Of a stretch of 64,000 bases of DNA, positions 3,794 to 64,000 are shown piece after piece. The notes beneath the pieces were generated by a model. It ran no database searches. It was not told where the DNA came from and was given only the letters and a program-made list of their open reading frames with translations. The stretch is from an uncultured bacterium (GTDB lineage Bacteria > Patescibacteriota > JACMRA01). The position numbers and the translations under genes were made by a program. Each line of letters begins with the position of its first letter. Position 1 is the first letter of the stretch. The stretch is from the NCBI GenBank assembly GCA_963784355.1, contig CAWAQU010000012.1:135760-199759 (forward strand), given 5' to 3'.

Positions 3794-3799
3794 CTATAC

Positions 3800-4408
3800 A
3801 TGTCTACAAACGATTTTAGATATCTCGAGCAGCGGCTTTTAGACGAGTTTAGCAAGCCTATGCATATGGGTATTTCTGAGCTTGCTACTGAGCTTGGCAT
3901 GAAAGACAATACAACACTTTTGTACCATATTCGTAAGCTTGTGAATGCAGGGTTCTTAATTAAGCTAAAGAAGGGAAGTTATAAAACATTGTTGAGTGTG
4001 AATACCGTAAATAGTAACATAATGGAAATACCCTTTTTTGGTAATGCCAGATGTGGAGATGGGGGAGAGTTACTTGAAGATTATCCTGACTACTATCTTC
4101 CAATGAGCACTCAAATGGTAAAACACAACTCTAAAGAATTATTTGCCTTGAAAGCTATAGGAGATTCTATGCGACCTGTAATTACTGAGGGTGATACTAT
4201 TATTGCTGAAAAATATACAAGTAATGTACCTGATAAAAAAAGTTTTTATGTGGTTACAAATAACCAAGAAGTATTGATAAAAAGAGTTTTATTTTCTAAA
4301 GATGGTAGCTTTTTACTTTCTACCAACCCTGAACACTTACCGATTCCTATTAATAAGGAAAATTTCAACATTGTCGGAAAAGTAGTAGGAGTATATAAAA
4401 ATTTTTAA
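3800..4408 (+). CDS. LexA/cI-like repressor (HTH + S24 autopeptidase)
   Basis: N-terminal HTH (ISELATELG...YHIRKLVNAGFL), IPFFGNARCG cleavage region, FALKAIGDSM (catalytic Ser), VLIKR (catalytic Lys), IVGKVVGV. Confidence 0.85.
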   Translation: MSTNDFRYLEQRLLDEFSKPMHMGISELATELGMKDNTTLLYHIRKLVNAGFLIKLKKGSYKTLLSVNTVNSNIMEIPFFGNARCGDGGELLEDYPDYYLPMSTQMVKHNSKELFALKAIGDSMRPVITEGDTIIAEKYTSNVPDKKSFYVVTNNQEVLIKRVLFSKDGSFLLSTNPEHLPIPINKENFNIVGKVVGVYKNF

Positions 4409-4445
4409 TAAATATTATGATTTACCAGACTAATTAACAATACTT

Positions 4446-4841
4446 ATGCCTACAGACACAAAAAATTTCTCACTATGGGTTAATCAAAAGACTGAATTAG
4501 AGCAAAATCTGTCCAGATTAAACTTTAGGGAAAGAGAAGTTTGGTCTTGTTACTGGGGCTGTAATATTGGATATGAATTAGATGGTAAAAGTGATTTTCT
4601 CCGCCCTATTTTAATTATTAAAAAAGTGAGCCCTGAGACTTTTTTGGCAGTACCTCTTACTAGTAGATTAAAAGATGGCTCCTGGTACCACAAGAGTAAT
4701 GTTGAGGGTAAAGAAGGAAGGTTTGTATTGCCGCAAATTAGAATGGTTGATGCAAAGCGGTTAAAATATTTTATTTCCAGGTTAAATGAAACTGACTTTA
4801 AAAGTGTCCGGCAAGCCTTTATAAAATTCATTATCTCTTAA
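4446..4841 (+). CDS. PemK/MazF-family toxin (endoribonuclease-like)
   Basis: FREREVWSCYWGCNIGYELDGKSDFLRPILIIKK...AVPLTS...LPQIRMVDAKRL. Confidence 0.85.
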   Translation: MPTDTKNFSLWVNQKTELEQNLSRLNFREREVWSCYWGCNIGYELDGKSDFLRPILIIKKVSPETFLAVPLTSRLKDGSWYHKSNVEGKEGRFVLPQIRMVDAKRLKYFISRLNETDFKSVRQAFIKFIIS

Positions 4842-4861
4842 AGTGTTGACTGAAATTAGGC

Positions 4862-46501: not shown

Positions 46502-47629
46502 TTAGTTCTCTTTGAGATAAGTAATATATTCTGGCTCATCCAAAAATCTATTTATAACAATAAAGATGTAGTAATATAAATTTTCTAAATATTCACGTAT
46601 CAATTTATCATTTCTCTTAAGCTTTGAAAAATTGCCATGAGCAATATCACACCTAATATTATAAATTTCTTTTAAATCTTCATTTAATTTTTTTAAATCA
46701 GTGTCTTTTGAGTAATCATGAATTAATATAGATAATTTTAATTTAAATTGTTTTGAAATTGATTCTTCAACATTAAATCTATTATAATCAGGGTTGTGGG
46801 TTAGTAGCATCTCAATAACACTAACCATACTTATAAATTGTATTTTATAGTCAGTGTTCCTGATATTATGTAGTAATTCACAAATATATAAAATTAATTC
46901 CCTGTCTTTTGTCTGTAAAATTTGTTTAAGTTTTGGTTTAAATGAGTTTAAATTTTTTATAAATAATTCAAAATCAAGGTGTATTGGCACTGTGTCACCT
47001 TCTATTATATTCGAACCTTCCATCCAGAGGAATAAGGTGTCTAGACTAATCTCATTCCTAGTACCAACTAAATTAGCAGATATATTCTTGAAAAACATTC
47101 TTGAGTTTGTTCTAAATAGCTCATAATGTGGTTTAGTGTGTGTTTTCAAATTAAAATAAAGGCATAATAAAGCTGTAAATTCAAAATATTCTTGAGCTTT
47201 AGCTATTGCTGGTACCAAAGTACGGTGAGTATAACTAGTTGTATCTATTGTATTTTCTAGTTCACTTTTTTGATCATATTGTTCATGTTTCTTGACGTTA
47301 ATCCTTAAAATAACCCACAACTTCCCTATTTTAGCTAAAGTAGTCTTCAAATCACCAGTCTCATTTTTAAAATTTAAATTCTGTTTATAATAAAACTTGT
47401 TCCATAGATAAAAACTTTGTTCTAATTGCTTTATATATGACTGTGATTGAATTTTATCAGAAATTTTAAGCAAGTACGCATCGCAATCGTTCAATAATAA
47501 TGTTACGATATAGTCTATCTCATCGTCAGTCCTAGGGTTATCTAAAACGTAGTCTAAGTCTTCTGAAAGTGTTAAGCTTTTATCTAATGGATAAATAAAA
47601 TTTGTTAGAATAAAAGGTGAGTTTTCCAT
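46502..47629 (-). CDS. ApeA-like HEPN domain protein (putative RNase)
   Basis: C-terminal QFISMVSVIEMLL...LKEIYNIRCDIAHGN (RxxxxH). Confidence 0.8.
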   Translation of the reverse strand: MENSPFILTNFIYPLDKSLTLSEDLDYVLDNPRTDDEIDYIVTLLLNDCDAYLLKISDKIQSQSYIKQLEQSFYLWNKFYYKQNLNFKNETGDLKTTLAKIGKLWVILRINVKKHEQYDQKSELENTIDTTSYTHRTLVPAIAKAQEYFEFTALLCLYFNLKTHTKPHYELFRTNSRMFFKNISANLVGTRNEISLDTLFLWMEGSNIIEGDTVPIHLDFELFIKNLNSFKPKLKQILQTKDRELILYICELLHNIRNTDYKIQFISMVSVIEMLLTHNPDYNRFNVEESISKQFKLKLSILIHDYSKDTDLKKLNEDLKEIYNIRCDIAHGNFSKLKRNDKLIREYLENLYYYIFIVINRFLDEPEYITYLKEN

Positions 47630-47650
47630 TACAATTAAAAGTAGTTAATT

Positions 47651-47824
47651 AGCTAAATGTAGTTTACAGTCAGTATCTGGTAAAAAAATTACAAACTCTA
47701 ATTACTTATGTAAAATTTACTGAGCATTATTTTACAAGCTACTCCACACTTGATCCATTCATAGTGGTGTGCTGTTTTTCCCTTCAGCTCGGGTTGATAC
47801 TCGCCCTATAAACTACATTTAACT
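47651..47824 (-). ncRNA. candidate structured RNA downstream of the DIP1984-family gene
   Basis: 19-bp closing helix agttaaatgtagtttatag / ctgtaaactacatttagct (2 G-U pairs on the minus-strand RNA), plus internal helices. Confidence 0.65.
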
Positions 47825-47826
47825 GA

Positions 47827-48282
47827 CTAAATAAGGTCAGTAGTCCAATTTAACGATTGAATTTTAGCTTCCAGTTCTCGTCTTTTTTTACTTAAATTAT
47901 CTAGCGATTTTCTATACTCAGGTACATCAACACTTGGGAAAATGCGTATTTCTGTTTTAGTGTAAGGCTGGACTAAGTTTGATGCTTTTTCTAAAAACTG
48001 CCTAAGAATTTTTATTTCCGCGTCTGCAACATCTCTTTCTACAATAAGCTCAGAAAGTGATTTACCACTCTCATCTTTACTAATTGTATTGGCAAAATTA
48101 ATCTTCTGCACTAAATCTTGATATTCAGTCAATATTTTTCGCAATTTACTAAATAATTCCTCTGGTTTTTCTGCCAAAATACCATTTTCTTGAATTTGAG
48201 CATTTGCTTGTAGCCGATACTCAAGTTGAGCAATATTTTTTTGTAAGTCTGCTCGAATAATTAAAGCTTCAGATAATTTCAT
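47827..48282 (-). CDS. DIP1984-family protein
   Basis: MKLSEALIIRADLQK...NAQIQE...KINFAN...LSELIVERD...YTKTEI...IQSLNWTTDL. Confidence 0.88.
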   Translation of the reverse strand: MKLSEALIIRADLQKNIAQLEYRLQANAQIQENGILAEKPEELFSKLRKILTEYQDLVQKINFANTISKDESGKSLSELIVERDVADAEIKILRQFLEKASNLVQPYTKTEIRIFPSVDVPEYRKSLDNLSKKRRELEAKIQSLNWTTDLI

Positions 48283-48385
48283 ATAAAATTTTATAGATGT
48301 ATATAAGGCTAATTTACTTTAGTGTGTCAAATTTATGTTGAGGTAAAAGTTGATATAAAAAATATTTGAAATGTGTAGTTTTGTC

Positions 48386-50203
48386 CTAGAAGAATTTATT
48401 TGGAAGTGCTTTTTTAATTTGATTGTATTTCTTAGTTACTTTTGAAGTTCTTTTTACATCTCTAAATTTAGTTGGAAAAAAATTGTGTATTTCACCATTA
48501 AACTTTTTTTCTTTTAAAATGTTAATTATTTCTTCCAAATATCCCAAACCAAATAGTGCCAGTTCCTCAAAAAACACAGCATCCTGAGACCTATCCATTA
48601 GGTCACTCAATAAGTGTTTAAAACTTAAACTATTTGAAAATGGTGTGCGTAAAAATTCATTATTAGTGTTATTAACTATAAGCAAAGTATTTCTAAAATA
48701 AGATTTTATATGTTCTACAGCATAAGGTTTTTTTACATGTAAATCTTTATCTTCTGAAAATGGATAAGCAATATAATCTGGAGCTCTTAGCCAGAACCAC
48801 TCACTTTTATATAGAATATCAAACAAATTATTTATATTTTTTGTACAAATAGAAACATAATAGTTTTTGATATTCTCCTTAACCTTAATTGTTCCTTCAT
48901 TATAGAAGTCATGAATTATTTCGTTCATTGAATAATTATAATATCCTAAAACTTCATTGATTAAATAAACATTTTTTGTTCTAAATACTTCTTTTCCTAT
49001 ATTAAAAACTAAATTTGGAAAAAAATTCATTTCATTTTCAACATCATGTTTGAAATATTGGTACTCTGAAAAACTCTCTTCGATTATTTCTGAATCTTCT
49101 TTTTCGTTTAAACTATGTAACATTTCTATAGTTTGTGTTGCCATGCCAGTTCTCACCATCACATAGCCATTATTATATTTTTCACGAAAACTTTCATATA
49201 GATTATGAATAAATTTATCAGCAATAAGATCATGGAAACCCTCTTTCTTGATACCAGCTACAAAAAGTTTTTCAATTTTTTCAGAATATCTATATCTATA
49301 GCCCCTTTTCAAACTTACTTGCATATTATGCTTATGAAGATGATAAGGTATCCGCAAACTAAAATTCAAACATAAATTATATATGTTCCGTCTATTTTGC
49401 TCAATTGCTTCAAACCCTACAAAACGGATCCAATTCATAAAATAGTCACAGGACTGAGCTAGGTTAAAATCAATATTTTCAATTTGAATATTTTTTTCAT
49501 CCTTAATTTTTACTATTCCTTCGTAATATTTTATTCTATCAATTAAAAATTCTAATTTTTTATCAAAATATACTGTTAAAAACTTGACGTTATCATTAAC
49601 TACCAAATTTCTTAAAAACTCTCTAATTTCAAGCTCATCTGAATTATATAGAAAATCGGAAATTATATTTGGATCATTTAGTGATAATGTTGTTTTATAA
49701 ATTTTTGGTATTAATATTAATAGCGAAATAACTAAAGTAACTATACCTAGTAAGAAAAATCTGACGAATTTAAATTCAAAATAACCTATTCTTGAGAGTA
49801 AAATTGAAAAAATAAATATTAAAATATTAAACAAATATAACTGAATTAAAAAGTTTAAGGGTGACTTTCTAATAAGATATTTAATACCTAAAAATCCAAC
49901 AAAATTTTGTGATCTTTCGGTTATAAAAATAAATACTGTAAAAACAATAGATATAATTCCACCTAAAAGTCCGACAGCTAAACTAGAAAATTGAATTACT
50001 AAATCTGGATCTACGTTGATCTTTGCATTCAAAAAACCTGTATTTGGTATATACAATAGAGCGATAATAGTAGCAATTAAGAAAAACAATAAAATAAATA
50101 CATGGTTTAGAATATATAAGTTTTTTGACTTATAAAAATATTTAATTTTTCCAGAATATCGCCATTTATACAACCTAATTTTTTCTATTAATTTATTAAT
50201 CAT
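48386..50203 (-). CDS. membrane protein (4 TM + large helical cytoplasmic domain), possibly DUF2254-like
   Basis: 605-aa, very AT-rich ORF with N-terminal TM helices. Confidence 0.7.
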   Translation of the reverse strand: MINKLIEKIRLYKWRYSGKIKYFYKSKNLYILNHVFILLFFLIATIIALLYIPNTGFLNAKINVDPDLVIQFSSLAVGLLGGIISIVFTVFIFITERSQNFVGFLGIKYLIRKSPLNFLIQLYLFNILIFIFSILLSRIGYFEFKFVRFFLLGIVTLVISLLILIPKIYKTTLSLNDPNIISDFLYNSDELEIREFLRNLVVNDNVKFLTVYFDKKLEFLIDRIKYYEGIVKIKDEKNIQIENIDFNLAQSCDYFMNWIRFVGFEAIEQNRRNIYNLCLNFSLRIPYHLHKHNMQVSLKRGYRYRYSEKIEKLFVAGIKKEGFHDLIADKFIHNLYESFREKYNNGYVMVRTGMATQTIEMLHSLNEKEDSEIIEESFSEYQYFKHDVENEMNFFPNLVFNIGKEVFRTKNVYLINEVLGYYNYSMNEIIHDFYNEGTIKVKENIKNYYVSICTKNINNLFDILYKSEWFWLRAPDYIAYPFSEDKDLHVKKPYAVEHIKSYFRNTLLIVNNTNNEFLRTPFSNSLSFKHLLSDLMDRSQDAVFFEELALFGLGYLEEIINILKEKKFNGEIHNFFPTKFRDVKRTSKVTKKYNQIKKALPNKFF

Positions 50204-50405: not shown

Positions 50406-50648
50406 CTATCCTGTGGGGATTTCTACAAATTCATCAAAAGGCATTGTAGCTTTAGAATAATTTGGATCACCTGATTGCTCACCAAAATCTTGTATACCAT
50501 AAACAATCATTTCATTTAAGTTAAGATCAACATACGATATTTCTCCATTATCCCACATTAAAACCCAGCGTTTACGATCTATTCCGTTTACTAATTCTTT
50601 AATTTTATCAATTTTATTTTCCTTGATTTTTTTGATAATATGGTCCAA
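50406..50648 (-). CDS. hypothetical / degenerate immunity-like fragment
   Basis: 80-aa ORF with a TTG start only; the frame stays open a little upstream until a TAA. Lies in the post-toxin array. Confidence 0.45.
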   Translation of the reverse strand: MDHIIKKIKENKIDKIKELVNGIDRKRWVLMWDNGEISYVDLNLNEMIVYGIQDFGEQSGDPNYSKATMPFDEFVEIPTG

Positions 50649-50788
50649 TTTGTTTTTGATTTGGTCTAAAACTGTAGGATCTTCATAATTCAGTATTATA
50701 AGAACTTACAATTAGTGAATCATATAAATCAAGTGTATACCATACCTGTCACGATCAATTATTTTTATAGTTATATTTACTTCTCACA

Positions 50789-51146
50789 CTAAATATAATT
50801 TTCAACACTTGGCTTAATTACCATCTCCCATACTTCTTGAGGAGTATTAAATCTGCCTGTTTCCTGCCATCCAACAGATGCGTAAGTGTGAATTAATAGG
50901 TATTTATTTTCGTACTCACAAATATAATCATCTGAACCAAAATCCCTCATAAGTGGAATTAGTTTACCATTATAAGCTTGATTTATACATATCATTAATA
51001 GTTTTAGAAGTCTGGTCATAATCTTTATTATCAAACATTAGTTGCCAGTCTTTAGCGATATTGATGTATTTGCTATACAAGTCTTGTTGATGTAGATATC
51101 CATTTAATTCTGTTGCTAATTTGGTTGGTTTGAATATTTCATTCAT
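50789..51146 (-). pseudogene. frameshifted paralogue of the immunity-like gene
   Basis: ATG 51146 MNEIFKPTKLATELNGYLHQQDLYSKY...INDMY, an extra A near 50984, then NQAYNGKLIPLMRDFGSDDYICEY...FNTPQEVWEMVIKP. Confidence 0.75.
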
Positions 51147-51474
51147 GAATCAATTTTTTAATTACATTATCCCAAACTTCTTCTGCTGTATCATAAATTT
51201 GATAGGATACATCTGGAGGTAATCTCCATGTGTTTAGTACTACATATTTTTCATTCCACACAAATAAAACTTTATCACTGTAACCAAGATCAACAATTGG
51301 TACTAATTCCCGATTAAAATAATTATGAAAAGTGTTATTAAATTGATCAATTAAATCTTGTTCAAATGAATGGGGATTCACAGCTAAGGAGTGGGAATTA
51401 TTTAACCTGAATTCATTATACAAAGGCTGTTTTTCTAAAAAAGCTTTTAAGTTGCTTATTTGTTCTGTTTTCAT
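51139..51474 (-). CDS. putative cognate immunity protein
   Basis: 111-aa ORF starting 8 nt after the toxin stop; similar to the next gene (LVPIVDLGYSD...YDTAEEVWDNVIK). Confidence 0.7.
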   Translation of the reverse strand: MKTEQISNLKAFLEKQPLYNEFRLNNSHSLAVNPHSFEQDLIDQFNNTFHNYFNRELVPIVDLGYSDKVLFVWNEKYVVLNTWRLPPDVSYQIYDTAEEVWDNVIKKLIHE

Positions 51475-51482
51475 AATTAAAA

Positions 51483-54400
51483 TTACTTTATACTTGGATT
51501 ATTAAATGTACCATTTATACTGTCATTTAAAACTGGCTTGTTTATAGCTCGAGTAGTTCTATTAGTGATAGCCTCGCCCCAGGTTTTAGCAAATGTACCA
51601 TTTGTCTCGTTTTTAAATCGATTTACCATATAGTCAGGCAAGGGATCTGTAGCGTTGTGGATTATTACCTTTGCATCAATTCCTGCATTTTTTGCGGCAA
51701 TTAATCTTGTATTATCTATTGACGTAAATACACCGTCAGACATTTTTACAATGTCAATTGGGTCACCAATCCAACCATTTTTTACCATACTGTTATATAT
51801 AATGTTATAATCTGCAATATCAACAAATGCTTGGCTAAACCTTATTTCAATACTCTTTTTAAACTCAATAATTGATTTTACTATCCTTCTAGCCTGATTA
51901 ATAATGATATAGTCATTACCATTTTTTATAATTTTACTGAATTTAAAAAAGTTTGTATCATCAGCATTATCCACAAACTGAAGTGCATCAGAGGCAGATA
52001 CTCCAACTGCATCAGCAGATAACCAGCGTATGGTTACAGATTTCCCGAACAAATCAATAGTCTCGTCAATATATCTGGCAAACTTGTTTACTAACAAATT
52101 ACTTGCCGATATTACTTTAGTAAATAGAAGTTCAACTTTTGTAAAGTTCACTGCAGTTTGAAATACCTTCAAATCTTTTGCTAAAACTGAAATAGTTTTT
52201 GTCGCTGCTACAATTTCTCCAACTCCAATAAATAATGAACCCACATTAACTACAGTTGCCCCAAACATCTTACCAAATATCTCCAGCCTTTCTTGAATAC
52301 TCTTAGTTTTGTAATCATCATAAAACTTAGCTAAGTAGCTTTGAGTGATCTGAGTAATAGCATCCCAATTATTTACTATCTCCGAATTTAGGATTGTGCC
52401 CGTTAAAGTACTAGGTAAATTACCATTAAATGCAGCAAAACTAAGCAAAGCAATCTGCATAGATGATAAATCCTGTAATTTTGCTTTTAGATAGTTCAAC
52501 AGGTTAGTCCAGAAGTTCATGTCAGTAATCTTGCTCATTGCAAACTTACTAAGCTCACCGAAAGTTTTAGGTATTTCTGCTATACCCTTAATAGTATCTG
52601 CTACAGTCTGAGCTGAGCCTTGGATAATACCCCATAATAAATAAACAGTATTTTGTATTTTAGTAAGTAAATCCTGATACTTTGATGCCTGACACTCTAC
52701 TTGGCCTTTTAACCAATTAAATATATCATTTACATTATTTGGAATTAACTTACGCAAGCAAGGATCAGAATTTGTAAGAGTTTGTAGAATAGGAACTATA
52801 GTTTGATTTAAGTCACTGTCTACTTGATTAGACAACAAGCTTACGATATCATTAAGTGATCTATTATCTGATTCAAACAGTGCGGTATTTCCTACTTTAC
52901 TTCTAGTATCTTCCGGTGGTAAATCTTCAAGATCAATGTCACCACTTCCAGTACCTCCAGTTCCACCACCTGTACCGCTGTCTACAACCTCATCAGCGTC
53001 GGTAGCATTGGTATTACAGAAATAGTTTTTCTGGTCCGTAGTAGTTACGTTACCACTACCTTGGTATAGATAATTACCTGGATTTACATACACTCCGTTT
53101 TGCAATAAAGCAAAGTGTAAATGAGGTGCGGTTGAATCTCCAGTCGCCCCCATGATACCGATTTGTTGACCTGCAGCTACAGTTTGGCCTTCTATTACTT
53201 TTACTTCAGGTGAAAGATGAGCATAGAGAGATACTAAACCTCCGCCATGGTCAATTTTTACAACATTTGCAAATCCTCCGTAAGCACCTTTGGCACTAGC
53301 TGCATCAGTCTTACCGTAGTTGTTGGTGAAGCTATTTACTACCTTGATCACTGTACCACCTTTTACGGCTAAAACAGGTTGAGTGTATGGATCTCCACTT
53401 ACTGCCACATCAATACCATTATGTCCTGGTCTTGAACTAGTTTGGAATCCTGAAGACACAACTGCTTGAGCACTTTGAATCGGATTTGCCCAACCTGTAC
53501 TAGAGACAGAACCACTGCATGAAGGACAAGCTTTGGTAGTGATGCTTGTTTGAGCTGTAGTTGAAACATTTCCTGCTCTATCAGTAAGCTTGACTGCAAT
53601 TGTGTAAGTAGCTCCTCCACAAGCTAGATTTGTGCCCAAAATATCACTGGTTTGGTACATACCCGTATCCGGTATGGTTATGGTTCTAGAGGTATTTAAA
53701 TTAGCTGAAGTTGATGTAATTTGAATATCAGCTCTGGTTTTAGCTTCTCCTTGGATTTTCAATCCTAATTTTTCATATAGATCATAAGTAACAGGGGTTT
53801 TAGTGGCAGTTAGGGTAGGGGAAGCAGGACTCACACTATCCCTCTCAACCATCTTCTCAGCCCAACCACTCGTACTAACTCCACCACTCCCACTTCCCAT
53901 CACATTCCCCGCACTATCCGAACTTCTCACCCTAATCAAATACAATCCATCACTACACTTTCCAAGTCTTCTATTCTTAATCGGAATATTAGTAGGGTTA
54001 GTAGCGCCCGTTGTACCAGTATTTGTACTCTCCACCTCTTGAATACAACTAGCTCCTCTACTCTCATCAGTACTTCCATTTCCTAGATTAACTGTATACT
54101 TACCTCTTGTACTATCCCAAACTACTGCTCCAGTGCCTCCACTTCCTGCAACCCCATCAACCCTTGTCATCTTGGTATTATACGTAGTACTAGGAGTTGT
54201 ACCACTTCCTCCATTTATTCCACTAAGATCAAACCCATTCATAAATACTCTACTACCAACTAAACCTGCTCCAGTAGTTACATTACTACTATTTTCTCTA
54301 CCACTAGTTAGATTACCATATTGATACTGAATATCACTTCTCTCATCAGAAGCATGAGTAGCTACTACTCTAACATCTTTAGTAATAGGAGTCTGACCAA

Positions 54401-57400
54401 AAGTAAGGTTAGTTGGACTAATTCCTTGATTGATAAAGCTGTTTTCAATACCTTGATCTACAATAGTACCGGGGTTGATAGTTGTGGTTGTGGTTACAGT
54501 TCCGGTACTTGAGGTTGAAGTTGTTCCATTTACAGTACTACTTCCATAACTATTAGAAGCAAAATCAGAAATACCTACACTTATTGGAGCTTTAGTATCA
54601 TGATAAACAGTAAGAGTTCTACTTCTAGTTTGATTGATAAAGCTATCTTTGTCAGTAGGGGTGATACCTGTTGTAGTTGCTGAGTTAACTACTGTACCTG
54701 GGTTATTCCTATCCTGCAAAGCTGAGTGGAAAGAAAGATTGCCTGCTAAATCTACTGTATAGAAAGAAAGTTGATAGTTGTTGATTGGATTATTACTGAC
54801 ATCAGCTGCCTTACCATCATCAGGGAAAACAAAAGTAAATTTAACCAAACACTTATCTTTAAACTTAGTAACAATTAGATTAGAACCGGGTAGGGGTTGG
54901 CTAGTGTTGTTATCAACAAATGTACCATATTTATCACTACTTACATCAGTACTACCTGTAGTGGTGCAACTTACAGCAGGGTTTGTAGCAGAAGCGTCCA
55001 ATAGTCTATACTGCTCTGTATCAGGGCTGATACTACCGTTTCCATTACCACTACTATTAGCTCCAGTATACTTGTAACCCATCACTACTCTTTGATTTTT
55101 CTCTACAGAGGTATTTAAAGTGATTTGGTTGGCCTTTAATGTATATACAGGGGTGTATTTGTCCGTATCTTGATTAGTTTGCTGGCCGGATTCATTAAAC
55201 CTGGTTTTGAGGTTATCAAAGGCCTTCTCAGTACAAGCCCTACTTAATCTCACATTTGGTGTAGCAGAAGTTGCCGAAGTAGTTGAACCACTGGGACCAT
55301 TGTCAAAGGAATTAAAGTATCTTTGATCAGTTAGGTTTCTATCAGTTTCCGGAGTTAGACCATTGGCACATAATCCGTCTAAACTATCTCCCCAGCCTGT
55401 CAGTTCAAAATCACCTTTTACAGTATTTGTGTTATCAATGAATAAACTGAAATCCAGACTCTTGCTTCTAGCTTGTTGATTATATGGGTAGCTCTTTGGA
55501 ATTGCTGCAGTATCTGAGCCTAGTCTTGTTGGGCCTGCTTGAGCCAGGGGTACCCCAAAGAATATATCTTTTTGCGTTTGAGTTAGATTGGCTTGGGTGG
55601 TGGTATTGGTCTGAACGTCGGTAGTAAGGAGGAAATCAGTATCAAGCAGTTTTTTAGTACCTACATTTTTACTGTGAATTTGCGTACCCATGTAACCTTT
55701 TGTACTGTTTGGTCTCATGCTTTTTAAGATACCCAAAAGATCATCCTGTTTGGTTTGGTTGTTTGTAAATAGAATTTGATTACCGGCTAAGTCCTGTAAA
55801 TATACGCTTGGGTAATAGACACCTTCACCATTTGGTCTATTGATAGTCAGGTTGGCACTATGGATGGTATCGGCCAGATATTTATAATGGCATGAATAAG
55901 GTACATTGATATTATTTTTCAAGTCATAAGCACTGTAAGTAGAACAGGCTACAGCTTGTCCTGTGATCGGATTTACAAAGTCGCCTAAACCTGACTCAGC
56001 TTTATTATTGACATTTTCGGGGTCGCATGGATCGTTAATGCTCATTGCCATCACAGTACCGCCTTCTTTTTTGGTATTACATTCAAAGCCCACTTCATTA
56101 AATATGGAAGATTCTGTGGTTTCTTCATCAGTTTTAAACGTGAATTTTACTTGATCCCCACTATGTATCCAAGGATTAGTTGAAAATTCGTTGTTTAGGG
56201 AATTTGATTGAGTTTGTACCCAGTTGAGTTCGGGAGTTTTGCGATCGTATTTTATCTTATAGTTGTATATAGTGTTGGCAACCGCGGGTCCGACTGAAGC
56301 AGATAGAGAGACGGTGTAAGTCTTTTCGGTGCCTTCGGGTATTTCAGGCAAGGTCAAAGAATTACTAAAAATACCGATGTTGTTGGCTTTAGTAGCTTCA
56401 CCACCTGTAGTTTGATAGACTATTGTCGCACCGTCTTTAATAGTTAGATTGATGTCTGCTTGAGGGTCAGTAGCGCCATATAGTTTGATAATATTAGAGT
56501 TGGTATAAAGAGTAGTAGTGTTATTAACCGGATTGGTAAGTTTGTATACCGGTCTCATTTCATAACATACATCTGAATTTGCCATTTCAGCTACAAAACA
56601 ATTACGATCTTCCTTCAAACTTCTTTTTTCCATTTTAAGTAGAGTAGGAGTGTAGGGCTTGACTCCACTAACTTCAAAAGCAACATATTTATCCAAAATG
56701 CTTTCACCTTTGTATGATCTAATTCTAGCCTGATAACTACCCCCAAGCACATCACTGTCCTGTCCTAAAAGGTAGTTGAAAGTCCAAGTACAGCCACTAT
56801 CCTGATTACATTTATTGGCGTAGCCTAGTTCTTTAGCTGATAAATAATAGGTTTTACCTGCTACATCAACTTTTTTTAAGGTATCTTTTTGGTTTTTCTT
56901 TATAATTGTATCAAGCGTAGGATTTAGACTGCCATTGTCTTCAGCCAGATTGTTGATAGAGCTGATACGTTTGATTGGTACTGGGTTATAATTGGCATCG
57001 GTTTGGGCAGTATTTAAACCATTTACATTTCCAATTAAATCAATATCTGCTGCCTCGGTATTTTTGTCCACATTGACTTTGAAAGTAATATATTTCAGGT
57101 CTTGCAGTTTTAAATATTTGTTATTAAGTGGTGTTTGATTGATAAATGCATCCAGTTCATCTTTGGAATTCAATCCTGCTAAATTGGAGGTCGCCGTCGC
57201 ACTTAGGTTTTGTGTAGATTCGGCTGTGAGAGTTACAGGATCGGAATTTTCAGTAGTATGTCCTAAGTTGTCACTAGCTTTTACTGTAAGCACGTAGTTT
57301 CTAGTTATAGTATCCACTGCAGTAGTTAGAATACCTGAAAAGAAACCTGTGGTTGTGACTTGTGTATTGGCCTTAACTTCACATACCCCATCCCCGTTAG

Positions 57401-60400
57401 GGTAGGTAGTTGTCTTTTCATCCAGACAAATGTTGGCGGTCCAAATACGAGGCATTACAGTAGTTGCTGTATCACTTGGGGTAGCTGCACCCTGGACAGT
57501 TACTACGCCTTTTGTGGTGGTATAGCCATTTTGTGGAGTCTGAATTATGGGCTTACTGTTGACGGGCAGGGAAGTTATGGAGCGAATTACTGTAGATGTA
57601 GTTGCATAGGTTTTTTCATTAGCCAATTTAATTTTAAATACGTAGCTATAGTTTGCGTCAGGAACTCTAGCACCTAGGCTCAAACCATGATTGTTTGCTG
57701 TAGTGGAGGCTACATTTACTTTACCGTCCCAGTAGAAATTGTTTGGAACACTGACTATATTGTTTCCAAATACAGTGCTACCGACGACAAGTGGGTCAGG
57801 GTACTGCCACATCAATCTGCCACCTGCATCTCTTATTTCTGCTCTGTAGTCAGCTTGTACGGGTGTCTCTGCTCCGTTTAAAGTACTATAAACTTTATTA
57901 CTGAAATTGACTGTATCAAATTTGCCGTCATTGTTTGGAGATATTGTGTTTCTTTCAGGACTGGAAACTATATTTACAGCACCCACATCCACTCGAATAT
58001 TACGGTTTAAAGTGGCCATGTTACCTAGATTTACGGCATCAATTTTTAGTTGATTGAGCTTTGGAGTGGTCAGGTCCGCAGAGTTATCTACTAAACTAAT
58101 CTTTAATTCATAATCACATACCTCTTTATCAGGAGTTTGCGGATTATTATCATGATCAACAAATTTATTACAGGTGAATTTTATTGGACTGCCTACATAA
58201 GTTAGAGTTCTGCCAGCTTCTACGCCCTCAGCGGACATAGTCTGTGAAGACAAATTCAACTCTTCAGGTAAAATGTTATTTTTACTAGGATCTACAGCTA
58301 TTCTGATAAATCTACCTAGAGTGCTATTATATATTTTCAACTGGCTGGATTTTTCAACTGTGCCCTTGACTATGGTAAAATTGTTGATGGTAATGTCTTC
58401 TTTTGGCTCACTCCATTGTAAATAAGTGTTGGTTTTAACTGTAAAGGCCTGGTCAAAATTTTGGTAAGCTGTGGTGTCAGCTCCACACTTTATCTCGGTA
58501 TTTATATTGGCCAAGTCTTTCGAACAAATCTGATTACCAGCAATATCGGTAGCTCTGACAAATAGCTTATAGCTAGCCTCACTGCTGAGCTCTTTGATAT
58601 CAAATTTACAGGTGACTTCATCGCTTTTTTTGTTGAGGTTGGGAGCGGTAGCCGGAATTGTAAAGTTACAACTCAAATTTTCGGCTAGTCTTTTTTTGCT
58701 GCTTGGATCGGTAACTGGTTGGCCATCTCTAAACAAAGGTAATTCTTTAGAAGTAGTCCAATTATCGAGAGTTTGTAGTAAAGAAACATCATAGCCGGTA
58801 GGATAGGTACCTATTGTAAGTCCTGAGGTCTGTTTATCATCTGCACCGACCTTATTGTCTTGTATTTTAAATCCTAAGCTAAAATCTTTAGTATTGTATT
58901 GAGTCTGTTGATTGATTGCAACTATACTAGGTTTAGTATCTTCATAGTTAAAATTGAAACTAGAAACACTTGTATTTTGCAACTTATCTTTGGCTTCAAA
59001 AGTGAAGGTATTTAAACCTTTATCTAAAATCTCGTTATTTAAAGAAAAATTGGGATTGGTATTTAGGTTTACCGGAACTGATTTATAAGCATAGCCGGTG
59101 GAGTTTGGTGTGGTACTTACAACATCCTTTTTTACTTTAAGTGAGTCAAAATTGTTGTTGCCTCCTGTTTTAGTAATGATTCCTCCAGATAAATTAATTG
59201 TAGATTTATTGACCCATCCGTCTACTTTGGGGTAGGATATATTTATATCGTTGGCTTTGGTGTCTATGGCTACAAAATTGTTTCCGGCTAGAGTGTAGCT
59301 TTCGTTGCCTGCTTTATCATAAGCTCTTACATCAATGGTGTAAAAACCGTCTTCCATATCTTGTCCTTGTTCATTTTTACCGTTCCAGATTGCTGTTAAA
59401 GTATATTTATCACTGTTGTCTTTGGTAAATGCTTGACTGTTACATGGATATGTAGTAGTTGTGTCCGGTAGTTTTACACATCTAGCTAAGCTGAGCACAG
59501 TTTTATCACTTAAAGTCGGTTGCTTATTTGTATCATCTTTATTCACATCAGTCCATCCGGTCCAGCTTATACCATCACTAGTTGATCTTTGCTTCAATTT
59601 GTTAGTACCTCGCTCAATAAAACTTTGGTATAAATTGCCATCGGAAATTTGAAATACAGGTACTTTATCTGAAGACATGAAATCAGTATGCCAACCTCCG
59701 AAATTTTCTCCGTCACCCTCCCTGGTAAACACGTATTTTTCATTATGAGCTCCAGTGATAGTTTGAAACCATTTTCCTTTAAATACAACACCTGCAACTT
59801 CATCCCAAGTGGAGCCTCCAGTATGTTTCCAACCGGTCCAGGTAGATCCGTCGCTGGAATACCTAGTGTAAATCAAACTATCTGTACCTCTGACTACTTG
59901 ATATAGCTTGCCGTTTAGTATATTTGTTTGAACTTTATTAAGTATATTACCTCCTCTTTCAAACCAGCCTCCCCATTCAATTTGACCTGTGGTATTGTTG
60001 TAAGTACCTACAGTCATAGCAATTGAATCAGTAACATTACCTCTAGTAGCGTAAAATAGCTTGTTTTGGAAAGTTACTAAAGACGGTTCACTAGTAGTTG
60101 AATCTCCTCCGTTTATCGAACTCCAAGTGGTTGGCCAGGTGATACCGTCGGTTGAACTTCTAAATACGTTTCTATTTGTATCTTTTTCTCTGGCAGCTTG
60201 GTATAAATTGTCATTTAAAACAGCCATTTGTACATTACCCGTAATACTACCTGTAGTGGCTACCCAATTAGACCAGACAATACCATCACCGGAGTTTCTG
60301 ATTATCGGAGTCCCATTTTGATTTTTGGCTTGGAAAAGTCTATTTTTAAATTTAATTTGAGTAATATAATTTCCGTCTTTATCTAAGATTCTTGTAGCCT

Positions 60401-63400
60401 CATCTCCGTCAACATAATTTTTCAAAGTATTTTGTCCTAAGATATAGACTTTGGCCGTATCAAAATTTTTATCAGTTACTTCAAAGCTAATTCTTGCTTC
60501 TTTGGCTACGTTGGCAGCAATTTGGGTGCTATTTTGTCTGCCGGCTGGTATAAATACTTGAGAATCATTGCCACTTTGGTCTTTGATACTAAAATTATCA
60601 ACTTTCGGTGCAATACTATCCATGGTAGTACCATCATAATTTTGCCAGTTGGAGATATTAGCCTGCCCACCGTTCATCCTATCCTTAGTTCTGACCCTGA
60701 CGTAGTACTTTTGTCCGTCCTGAAGCCAAAATTGATTTTGATTGTAGGTAGTATAACGCATGTCACTAAATCTCTGAGCGTCACCACCGTTACAAGGCCA
60801 AACTTGTACTTGAGCACCAAACTGAAAATTGCCACCCGGGATATCAAGGCACATCTCTGCATTATTAGGCCCTCTGGATTTTAACTTAATGGCCCCATTT
60901 ACAAATTCCCACTTTTGATTGTCTCCACCATGACACGGGTGAATATATACCTTATCTCCCGTATTAGAATATCTAGCATCTAAACAATACTGATCACTAA
61001 TAGCAGGGCGTAGTTCCATATTTTTAGTGTAAATCCAGCGTTGTTGAGGTGCTCCATGTGCTCCAAAGATGGTTGTATTGCAATTTACATCCATGCAAGG
61101 CTGCTCCAAATTCATTCCGGGCTGATTATTTTCAGTGGTTTTAGTTACTTTAATTTCACCATACCAAATTTTGCTAAAATCAGGATTGTTGGGATATTGC
61201 AATACAGGACTGGTTTGCCAGCCAAGATCAAGGCTATTTTGACCAGTAAAATTGGCATCTTTGGAAACTTGAAAATTATACATTAAATTCAAACCATTTC
61301 CGTATAGGCTATAAGGATTTTGAATACTAAATTGTTGATTCCAGTTGTTGTTGCAGTTTCCAAGTCTTATATCTGTACCATTAGCATCGTTAGCAGTCCA
61401 AGCGTCAGCACATAAAGTTGTATTTTTCAGATTTAGCCTACCTTGAGCGTCAAATATCCATTTTTGAGTAGATTTATTTTGGTCACAATAATTCATTACC
61501 ACATTGCTGCTATCTCGACCTTCAGTACCGTCCAAACAAGAGTTGCCTAGAGTAAACAAACTGATTTGCTGAGTTTTGCTATTATATAGCCATTGCTGGT
61601 TATCGCCTTGGTGGGAATCCCACAAAACAACATCGTTACCGGGAGCTTTGCCTTGAGCATCAAAAGACTTGGTTTTACCCTTTAAAGTTATTCTAAAAGG
61701 CTCATTCATTTTTCGGATTTCCCACTTTTGACTCAAAGACCCGTTACATCTACCAAGCCAAATCAAACGGCCGTTACTAGTATCTCCAAAAGGTACATTC
61801 AAGCACCAGTTTGAATCGTTATTCAACTTTAATTCCTTTGTGTTGTAGTCGTAGGCCCACTTTTGATTATCACCTTCATGACATTCCCATAAATGAATTT
61901 GTACATCATTTGCAAATCCTCCAGAAGAATCTACACACCTGCCTCCTGTGGTTCTAATTCGAAATCTACCGTCAGCCAAATTGCTCTCTAGCCAGAGTTG
62001 CTGATTTATACCGTTGTTAGTGTCCCACAATTCCATTTTAGTGCCATTAGTATAGTATCCGGTGTTGGCATTTATATCCAAGCTTTTATTTATCGGATTT
62101 AGAGAATCCATTTTCCATGTTTGACTCGAATCTTTAGAATCACAGACTTTTACAATAGCCTTGCCTCCAGTATAAATATCACCATTAGCAATAGCCAAAC
62201 AAAGTTCATTACCGCTCACTTCGTCTTTATAAAAAGATTTCAGTTGGTTTTGCCCTGTGACTGTCCATTTTTGATTATCTCCTCCAGCACATGGATAAAG
62301 ATTTACTTCTGAACCATCTGTTCGCTTAAAAATGCCACCTCCAATGTCTTTAGTAAAGATATCCAAACAAAAATTTCTATCTAGTTCGGAGCGTATAAGG
62401 AAATTATCAATATACCACTTTGACTGATTTATATTTTGCACTGATTGTAGGGTAGGGTTGACCGAAGTTGCTGCGGAATTTACAGTCAAACTTAAATTAT
62501 TATCGCTACCAGGTTTTAAATAGACTGTATTAAAAAGTCTTCCGGCACCAAAGTAATCAATGGCATATTTATTTAACAAATTATCACCTGTATCGGGAGC
62601 AACAAGTTCCAATTGGTTTTTACCGGAAAACTCTTTGCTTGGCATGGCCCCGGTTCTGAGTGGAGCTGACGAGTCAACTGTAAATCTGCGTGTATCGGAT
62701 TCTGTTGAAACTCTGTTTCCGGCATTGTCTCTACTGTAGGCTTTGAAATCTACAATACCGTTGGAGTTGGAAATATTGTTATAATCAGGACCACAGCCTC
62801 CAAATTGACCTTTTTCATACCATCTGGTATTTAGAGGGTCAGTCAAATTATCTTTTTGCCAAAGCAACATGGTAGTATTACTACAATTTCCATTACCATC
62901 ATCTACATTTTCCACCCTATAATTTACGTTTAGATTTCTATTACAATTTCCGGTTTGTGGGCTTTCTGATAAATTACAATTACCCATTACGTCCCAATTA
63001 TCAGGATTTATAGGGTTCGGTTTTTTTGGATCACCGTTAGTAAAAATTACTTGTAAATATGGTCCTTCACCTCCGCTCTGACAGGGATGTCCTGCCGCTG
63101 CACCACCATTTCTGGAGCAAAAAATTGCCCCTCTATTTTGATATTCATCAGGATCTCTAAATTCTAAATGAATCCCGCCACTGTTTTTAGAGTTTTCAAC
63201 TAAGTTAGCGATATTACTACTGGTGGTCCACTCTTGACCGGGATTAGTGTATCCAAAATTACGAATCGGAAAATAAATTGAGCCTTGATTGGGATCGCCG
63301 GCGTTAGCTTCAGGATAATTTGCATTCCAGGCTGTATCATTTTCGGGAAAACCCCCATTTAGTCTAAGCACTTTAGCACTAAAATCACCTCCGTTGTGAG

Positions 63401-64000
63401 CATATTGTTTGACTCTAATATAGGCCTGCTCTACTCTAGAATAACCAGCAAAATTGGCAGGGTAACCAAAACTCATTAAAGCTCTGGCATCTCCAATTAT
63501 GTAATCGCTAGGACAATTTCCTGAAGAAACGGTTACACAAACATTTCCACCTACGCCAAGCCACCAAGCACCGCCACGTCTGGTCCCGGGATTATTTAAA
63601 TGGATTACTGTATCAGCACCAGTCAATTGATAGCCGTTATCAAACCGAGGATCAATAAAAATCGGAAATTCTCTATCAGAACTGTTTAAATAATTCAAAT
63701 CAGGATAAATACTCAAAGTTTTTCCGTCATCTGAAATTGTAAAAGTATCGTTATTAAAACCGGAATATTTTTTATCAAAAGTAATCGGGGTTTCTAACTT
63801 AATTGTAGATTTACCTCCTTCTAAGCGTAAAATGTCCCCGGAATTACCTTTATTTTGTACTGCAGCCACCGCTTCTACCAGCTTTTCCTGACTCACTAGT
63901 TGGCCTTGATTCAATTTGCTTTGGATATTTTGCAGTTCTCCTATCTGCTTACTCAAAAAATCTTTTTTAGCCTGTAACTCCGCCTTTTTAACTTTATCCT
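51483..64000 (-). CDS. giant (>4150 aa, 5'-truncated) multidomain polymorphic toxin/adhesin: DNRLRE-like, ricin-B lectin repeats, propeller repeats, Ig/FlgD-like domains, M23 peptidase, ParB-like toxin tip
   Basis: Frame is open to the window end. FPIFIDPR motif; many QxW repeats; WNGKNEQG...YDKAGN; HNGID/YAHL/HLHF; C-terminal IRFSQ...GDPIDIVKMSDG...IDNTRLIAA...TWGEAI. Confidence 0.9.
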   Translation of the reverse strand, partial: DKVKKAELQAKKDFLSKQIGELQNIQSKLNQGQLVSQEKLVEAVAAVQNKGNSGDILRLEGGKSTIKLETPITFDKKYSGFNNDTFTISDDGKTLSIYPDLNYLNSSDREFPIFIDPRFDNGYQLTGADTVIHLNNPGTRRGGAWWLGVGGNVCVTVSSGNCPSDYIIGDARALMSFGYPANFAGYSRVEQAYIRVKQYAHNGGDFSAKVLRLNGGFPENDTAWNANYPEANAGDPNQGSIYFPIRNFGYTNPGQEWTTSSNIANLVENSKNSGGIHLEFRDPDEYQNRGAIFCSRNGGAAAGHPCQSGGEGPYLQVIFTNGDPKKPNPINPDNWDVMGNCNLSESPQTGNCNRNLNVNYRVENVDDGNGNCSNTTMLLWQKDNLTDPLNTRWYEKGQFGGCGPDYNNISNSNGIVDFKAYSRDNAGNRVSTESDTRRFTVDSSAPLRTGAMPSKEFSGKNQLELVAPDTGDNLLNKYAIDYFGAGRLFNTVYLKPGSDNNLSLTVNSAATSVNPTLQSVQNINQSKWYIDNFLIRSELDRNFCLDIFTKDIGGGIFKRTDGSEVNLYPCAGGDNQKWTVTGQNQLKSFYKDEVSGNELCLAIANGDIYTGGKAIVKVCDSKDSSQTWKMDSLNPINKSLDINANTGYYTNGTKMELWDTNNGINQQLWLESNLADGRFRIRTTGGRCVDSSGGFANDVQIHLWECHEGDNQKWAYDYNTKELKLNNDSNWCLNVPFGDTSNGRLIWLGRCNGSLSQKWEIRKMNEPFRITLKGKTKSFDAQGKAPGNDVVLWDSHQGDNQQWLYNSKTQQISLFTLGNSCLDGTEGRDSSNVVMNYCDQNKSTQKWIFDAQGRLNLKNTTLCADAWTANDANGTDIRLGNCNNNWNQQFSIQNPYSLYGNGLNLMYNFQVSKDANFTGQNSLDLGWQTSPVLQYPNNPDFSKIWYGEIKVTKTTENNQPGMNLEQPCMDVNCNTTIFGAHGAPQQRWIYTKNMELRPAISDQYCLDARYSNTGDKVYIHPCHGGDNQKWEFVNGAIKLKSRGPNNAEMCLDIPGGNFQFGAQVQVWPCNGGDAQRFSDMRYTTYNQNQFWLQDGQKYYVRVRTKDRMNGGQANISNWQNYDGTTMDSIAPKVDNFSIKDQSGNDSQVFIPAGRQNSTQIAANVAKEARISFEVTDKNFDTAKVYILGQNTLKNYVDGDEATRILDKDGNYITQIKFKNRLFQAKNQNGTPIIRNSGDGIVWSNWVATTGSITGNVQMAVLNDNLYQAAREKDTNRNVFRSSTDGITWPTTWSSINGGDSTTSEPSLVTFQNKLFYATRGNVTDSIAMTVGTYNNTTGQIEWGGWFERGGNILNKVQTNILNGKLYQVVRGTDSLIYTRYSSDGSTWTGWKHTGGSTWDEVAGVVFKGKWFQTITGAHNEKYVFTREGDGENFGGWHTDFMSSDKVPVFQISDGNLYQSFIERGTNKLKQRSTSDGISWTGWTDVNKDDTNKQPTLSDKTVLSLARCVKLPDTTTTYPCNSQAFTKDNSDKYTLTAIWNGKNEQGQDMEDGFYTIDVRAYDKAGNESYTLAGNNFVAIDTKANDINISYPKVDGWVNKSTINLSGGIITKTGGNNNFDSLKVKKDVVSTTPNSTGYAYKSVPVNLNTNPNFSLNNEILDKGLNTFTFEAKDKLQNTSVSSFNFNYEDTKPSIVAINQQTQYNTKDFSLGFKIQDNKVGADDKQTSGLTIGTYPTGYDVSLLQTLDNWTTSKELPLFRDGQPVTDPSSKKRLAENLSCNFTIPATAPNLNKKSDEVTCKFDIKELSSEASYKLFVRATDIAGNQICSKDLANINTEIKCGADTTAYQNFDQAFTVKTNTYLQWSEPKEDITINNFTIVKGTVEKSSQLKIYNSTLGRFIRIAVDPSKNNILPEELNLSSQTMSAEGVEAGRTLTYVGSPIKFTCNKFVDHDNNPQTPDKEVCDYELKISLVDNSADLTTPKLNQLKIDAVNLGNMATLNRNIRVDVGAVNIVSSPERNTISPNNDGKFDTVNFSNKVYSTLNGAETPVQADYRAEIRDAGGRLMWQYPDPLVVGSTVFGNNIVSVPNNFYWDGKVNVASTTANNHGLSLGARVPDANYSYVFKIKLANEKTYATTSTVIRSITSLPVNSKPIIQTPQNGYTTTKGVVTVQGAATPSDTATTVMPRIWTANICLDEKTTTYPNGDGVCEVKANTQVTTTGFFSGILTTAVDTITRNYVLTVKASDNLGHTTENSDPVTLTAESTQNLSATATSNLAGLNSKDELDAFINQTPLNNKYLKLQDLKYITFKVNVDKNTEAADIDLIGNVNGLNTAQTDANYNPVPIKRISSINNLAEDNGSLNPTLDTIIKKNQKDTLKKVDVAGKTYYLSAKELGYANKCNQDSGCTWTFNYLLGQDSDVLGGSYQARIRSYKGESILDKYVAFEVSGVKPYTPTLLKMEKRSLKEDRNCFVAEMANSDVCYEMRPVYKLTNPVNNTTTLYTNSNIIKLYGATDPQADINLTIKDGATIVYQTTGGEATKANNIGIFSNSLTLPEIPEGTEKTYTVSLSASVGPAVANTIYNYKIKYDRKTPELNWVQTQSNSLNNEFSTNPWIHSGDQVKFTFKTDEETTESSIFNEVGFECNTKKEGGTVMAMSINDPCDPENVNNKAESGLGDFVNPITGQAVACSTYSAYDLKNNINVPYSCHYKYLADTIHSANLTINRPNGEGVYYPSVYLQDLAGNQILFTNNQTKQDDLLGILKSMRPNSTKGYMGTQIHSKNVGTKKLLDTDFLLTTDVQTNTTTQANLTQTQKDIFFGVPLAQAGPTRLGSDTAAIPKSYPYNQQARSKSLDFSLFIDNTNTVKGDFELTGWGDSLDGLCANGLTPETDRNLTDQRYFNSFDNGPSGSTTSATSATPNVRLSRACTEKAFDNLKTRFNESGQQTNQDTDKYTPVYTLKANQITLNTSVEKNQRVVMGYKYTGANSSGNGNGSISPDTEQYRLLDASATNPAVSCTTTGSTDVSSDKYGTFVDNNTSQPLPGSNLIVTKFKDKCLVKFTFVFPDDGKAADVSNNPINNYQLSFYTVDLAGNLSFHSALQDRNNPGTVVNSATTTGITPTDKDSFINQTRSRTLTVYHDTKAPISVGISDFASNSYGSSTVNGTTSTSSTGTVTTTTTINPGTIVDQGIENSFINQGISPTNLTFGQTPITKDVRVVATHASDERSDIQYQYGNLTSGRENSSNVTTGAGLVGSRVFMNGFDLSGINGGSGTTPSTTYNTKMTRVDGVAGSGGTGAVVWDSTRGKYTVNLGNGSTDESRGASCIQEVESTNTGTTGATNPTNIPIKNRRLGKCSDGLYLIRVRSSDSAGNVMGSGSGGVSTSGWAEKMVERDSVSPASPTLTATKTPVTYDLYEKLGLKIQGEAKTRADIQITSTSANLNTSRTITIPDTGMYQTSDILGTNLACGGATYTIAVKLTDRAGNVSTTAQTSITTKACPSCSGSVSSTGWANPIQSAQAVVSSGFQTSSRPGHNGIDVAVSGDPYTQPVLAVKGGTVIKVVNSFTNNYGKTDAASAKGAYGGFANVVKIDHGGGLVSLYAHLSPEVKVIEGQTVAAGQQIGIMGATGDSTAPHLHFALLQNGVYVNPGNYLYQGSGNVTTTDQKNYFCNTNATDADEVVDSGTGGGTGGTGSGDIDLEDLPPEDTRSKVGNTALFESDNRSLNDIVSLLSNQVDSDLNQTIVPILQTLTNSDPCLRKLIPNNVNDIFNWLKGQVECQASKYQDLLTKIQNTVYLLWGIIQGSAQTVADTIKGIAEIPKTFGELSKFAMSKITDMNFWTNLLNYLKAKLQDLSSMQIALLSFAAFNGNLPSTLTGTILNSEIVNNWDAITQITQSYLAKFYDDYKTKSIQERLEIFGKMFGATVVNVGSLFIGVGEIVAATKTISVLAKDLKVFQTAVNFTKVELLFTKVISASNLLVNKFARYIDETIDLFGKSVTIRWLSADAVGVSASDALQFVDNADDTNFFKFSKIIKNGNDYIIINQARRIVKSIIEFKKSIEIRFSQAFVDIADYNIIYNSMVKNGWIGDPIDIVKMSDGVFTSIDNTRLIAAKNAGIDAKVIIHNATDPLPDYMVNRFKNETNGTFAKTWGEAITNRTTRAINKPVLNDSINGTFNNPSIK

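Follow-up and report, generated by a model that had tools for sequence, protein, structure and literature searches.

The closest described systems are WapA and the Rhs toxins of Gram-positive bacteria, such as S. suis WapA-CT1 (PMC12704120) and the DNRLRE-Rhs proteins of Priestia plasmids, in which a Sec signal, an N-terminal domain and a DNRLRE head are combined with a variable C-terminal toxin, a downstream immunity gene and orphan cassettes. For S. suis WapA-CT1, a Sec signal, DNRLRE and LysM are reported together with an N-terminal domain of unknown kind (PMC12704120). Sec-exported stalked toxins with a tripartite plan, including those that pair Tox-ParBL1 with Imm-SUKH, have also been described (Zhang et al. 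2012, PMC3482391). RicinB adhesion domains are known in some of these, and the main text of that paper names RHS, FilH, phage tail fibre and ALF as stalk types and has no mention of M23 (PMC3482391).

Two other groups are similar in part. Umbrella particles consist of separate UmbA, UmbB and UmbC proteins with ALF repeats. Those of Streptomyces are described as multi-protein complexes which combine diversified lectins with polymorphic toxins and so vary on two tiers (PMC13274773). Giant surface proteins of several thousand residues are reported from the small genomes of CPR and Omnitrophota parasites or predators, where they are proposed to attach to or degrade prey; as described, they carry adhesion or degradative domains, not variable tips with linked immunity (PMC8080830; bioRxiv 10.1101/2023.11.21.568195).

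The DNA analysed here, hereafter called the window, is the final 64 kb of contig C12 in genome G000. It contains a gene for a giant protein which shares its head with the WapA/Rhs toxins, and its tripartite plan, its putative tip family and probably its immunity family and their pairing with the toxins of Zhang et al. Unlike WapA/Rhs proteins, it lacks the YD/Rhs cage, DUF6531 and the DPxG autoprotease, and has instead about 2,000 amino acids of Ig/FlgD-like stalk, a ricin/propeller block and an embedded M23 domain. Unlike the toxins of Zhang et al., as far as these are described, its family alternates envelope-acting and cytoplasmic tips on one chassis. The likeness to umbrella particles is seen as an analogy: lectins, wall hydrolase and toxin are here one chain encoded by a single gene, only immunity-like genes lie downstream, and no ALF match was found on the window protein. 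The diagnostic domains of CdiA, T6SS and T7SS-LXG systems were not found on the protein, nor were the cognate secretion markers BamA, TssC and WXG100 in G000 at its 81% completeness. The best reading of the locus, with a probability of about 0.7, is that it encodes a stalked polymorphic toxin, exported by Sec and belonging to one family of Patescibacteria, in which lectins, M23 and tip would attack neighbouring cells and immunity would be encoded by the next gene.

The giant gene, its head and its lectins

Genome G000 comprises 1.14 Mb in 13 contigs with 33% GC, and is rated 81% complete. It encodes SecY and five Mur ligases, the latter indicating that the organism makes a cell wall. Loss of ribosomal protein L30 is a CPR trait, and L30 was not found in G000 at 81% completeness; neither were BamA/Omp85, TssC and WXG100. 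Together with the small genomes in the phylum sample, these traits support a monoderm organism of the Patescibacteria type.

The giant toxin gene is one open frame at 51483..63998 on the minus strand, with 4,171 visible amino acids, open at the contig end and missing its 5' end. The first-pass annotation had asked for this end to be retrieved. When all contig ends with open frames of at least 80 aa were considered, only the 3' end of contig C8 (61610-62266, plus strand) was found to encode a signal-peptide-like start and head domain, the probable start of the gene by homology. The C8 frame has 50% identity (E 1.6e-35) with residues 152-278 of P0001, a full-length homologue of 4,803 aa, and the window frame aligns with P0001 from residue 401 onward. 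No overlap between contigs was found at the contig ends of G000; the join of C8 to C12 is inferred from homology and not from reads, and would give a protein of probably about 4,500 aa with a Sec-type signal and WapA-like head. As far as aa 3400, the window protein is collinear with P0001, each 200-aa bin having 40-56% identity; beyond this, identity drops to 21-31% across M23, the pre-toxin region and the tip, and the tip of P0001 is a different one.

The position of the gene at a contig end would suit an assembly chimera, or an Ig-repeat adhesin with incidental fusions, as would the stalk profile, which in a library of 1.84 billion proteins mostly retrieves ordinary Ig-repeat giants. However, the independent full-length homologues P0001, P0154 and G001 are collinear, and the next genes are matched in compartment to the tips and accompanied by cassettes (see below), by which this explanation is already largely refuted and very improbable.

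The head occupies 63063..63998 on the minus strand and comprises the end of a WapA-type N-terminal domain and a DNRLRE (CBM96-like) domain. Residues 57-483 of the window protein align at 28% identity to a paralogue of 3,020 aa in the same genome (C3:39074-48136). The NF033679 (DNRLRE) model matches the aligned region in four homologues, the paralogue and three other N-termini (E 2e-12 to 1.5e-19), and does not match the window copy or the full-length P0001, P0154 and P0160, so that the DNRLRE-like domain first proposed stands through its aligned homologues and not through an HMM match of its own. In a search with the paralogue head, 33 plasmid records of Bacillota and Actinomycetota were matched; 24 of the 25 matches listed are annotated as DNRLRE proteins, and the two of these plasmid proteins that were checked are both YD/Rhs proteins. 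Judged by sequence, the head is of the WapA type, known from Gram-positive WapA/Rhs toxins and not new. Since it consists of a WapA/Rhs signal, N-terminal domain and DNRLRE, export would be by ordinary Sec. Signal-like N-termini are present in 14 of the 15 family members examined, that of the window protein through the inferred C8 start.

The paralogue (L001) has no lectins and has M23 and a lipase-type tip; a membrane-anchored gene and then a transposase-like gene lie downstream of it. The genome also encodes a true WapA/Rhs protein of 2,282 aa (L003, C3:171552-178400) with a related head, YD repeats, an Rhs core and a short tip; several small genes lie after it. Other giant frames in G000 are found at C7:125715-143555 (5,946 aa), C10:8553-20141 (3,862 aa) and C6:57554-66589 (3,011 aa). 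In G013, a frame of 4,178 aa (L042:6842-19375) has an M23-like stretch in its N-terminal part and resembles Rhs proteins at its end.

The head is followed by ricin-B (QxW) lectin trefoils (60765..62501, minus strand), a slot which varies in the family. Five stretches were matched by Pfam (E 1.6e-55), and 12 subdomain-sized repeats at aa ~500-1078 correspond to about four trefoils, the number originally proposed. Six repeats of ~47 aa, probably forming a beta-propeller, come next (59529..60386, minus strand). Anchored on Trp by the analyst, these have a mean pairwise score of 46, compared with 22 +/- 1.3 in shuffles, none of 500 of which scored as high; the W-x-x-W-GG signature once given for them holds in part, GG being present in only some repeats. 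The six-repeat region was found only in the window protein and P0001, and its single-sequence fold model had a pLDDT of 35. Because the language-model neighbours, PLL-like propeller lectins (0.90), had low recognition, a lectin propeller is here a lead.

From the stalk to the toxin tip and its putative immunity genes

The stalk (53514..59501, minus strand) consists of ~2,000 aa of Ig/FlgD-like domains with seven DxAGN motifs, as first described, and Big_13 matched one sub-region with E 3.2e-9. Its last module (A1), with the pattern RRxGxCxDG...ERD...DRAGN, is the family marker. It is followed by a predicted M23 peptidoglycan endopeptidase (53064..53492, minus strand; Pfam aa 3525-3640, E 3.6e-23), in which the zinc and catalytic motifs HNGID, YAH and HLH (H3526xxxD, the catalytic His H3594 and H3626xH) are intact, as had been claimed. 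The M23 motifs are retained in all 21 aligned family copies. An acidic, Gly-rich linker (52899..53063, minus strand) leads to a pre-toxin module of ~330 aa (51870..52868, minus strand) with predicted amphipathic helices and one hydrophobic segment (KD19 1.7). This module is common to toxins of the lineage with cytoplasm-type tips (leave-one-out profile E 1e-5 among 1,123 proteins). No relatives were found in a weak search among 598-2,000-aa proteins, and the profile did not match the Bacillota or Rhs tip carriers P0002-P0016, so that a module in common with LXG-type toxins finds no support here.

No YD/Rhs match (TIGR01643/TIGR03696) was obtained on the window protein or on nine other long members; the Rhs protein of G000 itself, the control, matched both the YD and the Rhs-core models. 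Pfam and NCBIfam searches of the window protein gave no haemagglutinin, VgrG/PAAR or LXG/WXG domain. Both results agree with the first-pass annotation, which had seen none of these in the visible part. DPxG was not found in the last 900 aa as an autoprocessing element, nor PT-HINT in G000. As to wall anchors, no LPxTG, TM or SLH was seen in the family proteins examined; G000 has a sortase-like fragment below the cut-off, and no sorting motif was found.

The arrangement of these modules bears on the alternative that the producing cell is what the lectins and M23 act on, with the head anchoring the giant to its own surface, M23 clearing the producer's wall at export and only the pre-toxin helices delivering the tip. 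The lectins lie in the N-terminal quarter, where producer-anchoring domains are placed in the literature (PMC3482391); G000, with its Mur ligases, makes a wall; the short secreted toxins of G041 and G015 share the pre-toxin module and tip without stalk or M23; and the published discussion of WapA treats the passage of proteins of this size across the producer wall as an open question (PMC12704120). However, M23 is ~3,900 residues from the start and directly before the warhead, and the number of subdomains in the lectin block lies anywhere between 0 and ~12 among relatives, a variation beyond what anchoring to the producer would call for. A self-directed role is thus considered unlikely, and a weapon aimed at neighbouring cells is preferred.

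The toxin tip (51486..51851, minus strand) has no Pfam match. Its AlphaFold model (pLDDT 81) resembles ParB/sulfiredoxin chains with a best Foldseek E of 0.009, and the VIA structural match has middling scores (Z 6.7, rmsd 2.7, 82 aligned), nine of 11 VIA rows being titled ParB, KorB, Srx, SbnI, serine kinase or related. The ParB-like tip read from the letters is in this way borne out by the predicted fold despite the silence of Pfam. Alignment revealed IRFSQ with a conserved Ser and an invariant N-T-R (S...DNTR motif), and no sequence match to solved structures. Homologues of the tip (n=15) terminate Rhs, PT-TG and unnamed proteins of other bacteria. Tox-ParBL1 is defined by a ParB fold, a conserved N-terminal Ser and an [NT][RT][RT] motif, with Imm-SUKH and Imm44 given as partners and with a chemistry described as only predicted (PMC3482391). 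The modelled fold and the Ser and N-T-R motifs fit this published definition, and the tip is accordingly classed as putative Tox-ParBL1.

GC content falls from 0.38 in the chassis to 0.32 in the tip and 0.29 in the immunity region. A gene for a soluble, SUKH-like protein of 111 aa (51139..51474, minus strand), the putative cognate immunity protein, begins 9 bp past the toxin stop. Pfam gives nothing for it; its ESM neighbours include SUKH-3 and RhsPI clusters (0.92-0.94). In P0011 a homologue of the tip is fused to SMI1_KNR4. A second copy of the same immunity family (50789..51146, minus strand) has a frameshift near 50985, due to decay or assembly error. ParBL1 tips were found in four of the 27 class genomes (4 tips in all), each followed by a gene of this immunity family: a profile of the other three immunity genes matched the window gene with E 2e-5 and the broken copy with 1e-9 (1,103 proteins; best unrelated 0.05). 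Two of the four tips are on short secreted carriers without a stalk (G041, G015) and one is on a cassette (G008). Farther downstream, a small open frame without a clean start (50406..50705, minus strand) is possibly a decayed orphan immunity gene and was not matched by the immunity profile. The immunity-like genes first noted are thus upheld for the first and, as a frameshifted copy, for the second, with the third left unassigned.

The short secreted toxins (704 and 662 aa; L091:1740-3854, L092:530-2518 and 2738-4849) consist of the pre-toxin module and a ParBL1 tip without stalk; one has Excalibur-like repeats, and the other adjoins a secreted protein with ricin repeats. Past the toxin locus of the window is a low-GC block (46502-50203, minus strand) with a 605-aa protein (N-terminal TM segments, no family, GC 0.245), DUF6847 and a HEPN-like protein. 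The window also encodes an OLD/AriA-like ATPase with a weak TOPRIM match, likely a defence gene (18932-20899, plus strand), and a secreted GH113 glycoside hydrolase with Ig-like repeats (5142-7214, plus strand).

A family with exchanged tips and optional modules

The A1 stalk marker was found in 12 of the 27 class genomes, with up to six copies per genome, and, outside the family, in three genomes of a phylum sample of 377. One of these three (G376) is a true member; G320 and G079 were rejected as plain Ig-repeat surface proteins. One distant member is labelled Dojkabacteria. The Rhs core passes the cut-off in two of the 27 class genomes. With the stalk profile, 11 of the 150 matches listed from 1.84 billion proteins bear the family motif, the search being swamped by unrelated Ig-repeat proteins. 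The member set consists of 33 proteins, 24 from loci and nine from databases, after P0095 was dropped as a duplicate of L030; many are truncated by contig ends and six come from one genome, so that the members are not independent. M23-ending giants (G000 C5, L031, L039-L041) belong to a different family and were left out.

The commonest tip, in 15 of 33 members, is an alpha/beta hydrolase with GxSxG (lipase-type), with Pfam support below the cut-off. WHH/colicin-DNase tips are present in three members, and GIY-YIG, DUF6883, CHAP-like, C39-like, zincin and Ntox24-like tips in single cases, some with weak E-values; further tips without a family match resemble RNases on inspection by eye. The genes after WHH tips are of the SMI1_KNR4 family, and the gene after the GIY-YIG tip is Imm26. 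These pairings, and putatively that of ParBL1 with a SUKH-like protein, are among the toxin-immunity pairs tabulated by Zhang et al. (PMC3482391). The first-pass annotation had named tip polymorphism and immunity linkage among homologues as points on which its reading would be judged; both were found. The next gene changes with the tip, in keeping with the compartment where the tip would act: among 21 first-downstream genes, it encodes an N-terminal TM segment after 10/10 envelope-type or unassigned hydrophobic tips (KD19 >=2.5), and a soluble protein without TM after 11/11 cytoplasm-type tips (KD19 <=1.1). The Fisher value for this pattern (3e-6) is overstated, because related members are counted separately and several tips were assigned to their class by inspection. 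The count excludes members for which the contig offers no clear next gene (L032, L035, L036, L043, L044 and the P proteins).

Well-supported sister chassis carry different tips: the window protein and P0001, L026 and P0140, L033 and P0122, L045 and L050, L047 and L048, and L025, L027 and L029. L026 and P0140 are 62% identical over 489 residues after M23 and then have unrelated tips. In a stalk-module tree, built from 30 of 34 rows and with bootstrap values that had not fully stabilised, six well-supported groups each unite members with different tips, and five to six switches between tips acting outside and tips acting inside are needed. Of eight loci tested, four (L047, L050, L029, L033) have downstream cassettes with alternative tips and arms of DNA homology, and a fifth has a duplicated immunity gene; the duplicated arms are 81% identical over 998 bp and 94% over 1,033 bp. 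No standalone cassette for the window tip was found in G000.

The other modules are optional. Of 11 long members, five have 10, 7, 6, 3 and 2 ricin subdomains respectively and the other six have none, as has the Rhs control. M23 is present in 25 of 33 members; of the eight without it several have cytoplasm-type tips, from which it follows that delivery does not depend on M23. Among the members are also short proteins of 745-1,342 aa that carry a signal peptide of their own. The chassis first described, with lectin adhesin, stalk, M23 and toxin in one polypeptide, is therefore confirmed as one chain, but its lectins and M23 are not constant parts of the family.

Proteins of ~250 aa, N-terminally anchored and without a Pfam match, follow the lipase tips of L001, L024, L029, L030 and L034, and are a candidate new immunity family. 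A linker of the form Cys-x(15-35)-[VI]xxxA-x(1-10)-Cys, resembling the cleavage region of signal peptides of the lineage, lies just before some cytoplasm-type tips (L045, L050:8663-10930 and P0140; partly P0001 and L026). It is a post-hoc pattern, with a strict match in 3/14 versus 0/19, and is absent from the window protein. Similar internal Cys/VxxA motifs lie between the domains of a 2,277-aa multi-hydrolase (G000:C5:10954-17787). The linker is a possible nick site in a disulfide loop, and release in some members may take place at this signal-peptide-like VxxA site in the Cys-Cys loop just before the tip.

Proposed action and meaning for the lineage

The conserved trafficking and stalk region, diverse tips, linked immunity, cassettes and signal mark this, at the level of sequence, as a bona fide polymorphic toxin system. 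Head and lectins would hold the giant protein on cell-surface glycans, and the stalk would bring the C-terminal part of the protein to an adjacent cell whose peptidoglycan is exposed, where M23 would open the target wall locally. In members such as the window protein, hydrophobic pre-toxin helices would put the tip across the membrane; the ParBL1 domain might then act on a nucleotide or nucleic-acid phosphate bond, with the SUKH-like 111-aa protein protecting the producer. Lipase, CHAP and protease tips would act outside the cell and be neutralised by membrane-anchored proteins.

Since a tethered M23 can act only where peptidoglycan is exposed, the targets are probably monoderm; the most likely ones are neighbours of this kind, among them related epibionts that compete for a host surface. 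That the targets are rivals or kin is given somewhat better than even odds, and that the target is the host is possible at clearly lower odds. A related explanation is that the proteins serve feeding by a parasite which cannot make lipids and nucleotides itself: they would bind host glycans and cut the host wall, lipases and nucleases would free lipids and nucleotides, and immunity would be self-protection only. The dominance of lipase tips could serve lipid scavenging, lectins, M23 and weak LGFP-like repeats in the family (E 0.005-0.02) suit attack on a walled host, and giant surface proteins have been linked to host attachment in Vampirococcus, as far as described (PMC8080830). However, tip turnover among sister chassis, cassette arrays and extra immunity copies are the mark of conflict between cells armed with the same weapons, and a diderm host would presumably shield its wall from a tethered M23. 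Feeding is for these reasons regarded as doubtful. Rapid tip turnover and spare immunity copies instead suggest conflict among carriers.

The first-pass annotation had proposed an undescribed contact-dependent system that binds host glycans and cuts the cell wall. A non-Rhs stalked polymorphic toxin with immunity linkage in a genome of the Patescibacteria type is supported, but the head is not new, being that of WapA/Rhs proteins exported by ordinary Sec, and the glycans bound and the wall cut may be those of the host, of rival epibionts or of the producer. Head and tip types are known; the Ig-stalk/M23 middle in place of an Rhs cage appears undescribed, as do the three swappable slots (lectin block, M23, tip) and the expansion in Patescibacteria. 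Neither this family nor any Ig-stalk/M23 polymorphic toxin in Patescibacteria was found in a search of full-text literature, in which subscription papers are poorly covered. A more speculative reading, offered tentatively, is that a weapon made of one chain, able to "aim, drill and deliver" and with three slots that are exchanged independently of one another, has expanded in one ultra-small epibiont family, where it clears rival epibionts from a shared host surface; toxins would then reach the cytoplasm with the help of neither Rhs cage nor HINT domain nor injection machine.

The Ig stalk would be a new stalk class for polymorphic toxins, and the fused M23 suggests a way, open to test, in which giants exported by Sec may get through peptidoglycan. 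The family offers tips and immunity families that await characterisation, and its lectin blocks may be usable as probes for the hosts or rivals of the lineage. Patescibacteria are seen as stripped-down dependants, and yet this lineage spends up to several weapon genes of 9-14 kb per genome of ~1 Mb; an outlay of this size on polymorphic weapons implies that conflict between bacteria is strong, perhaps between epibionts.
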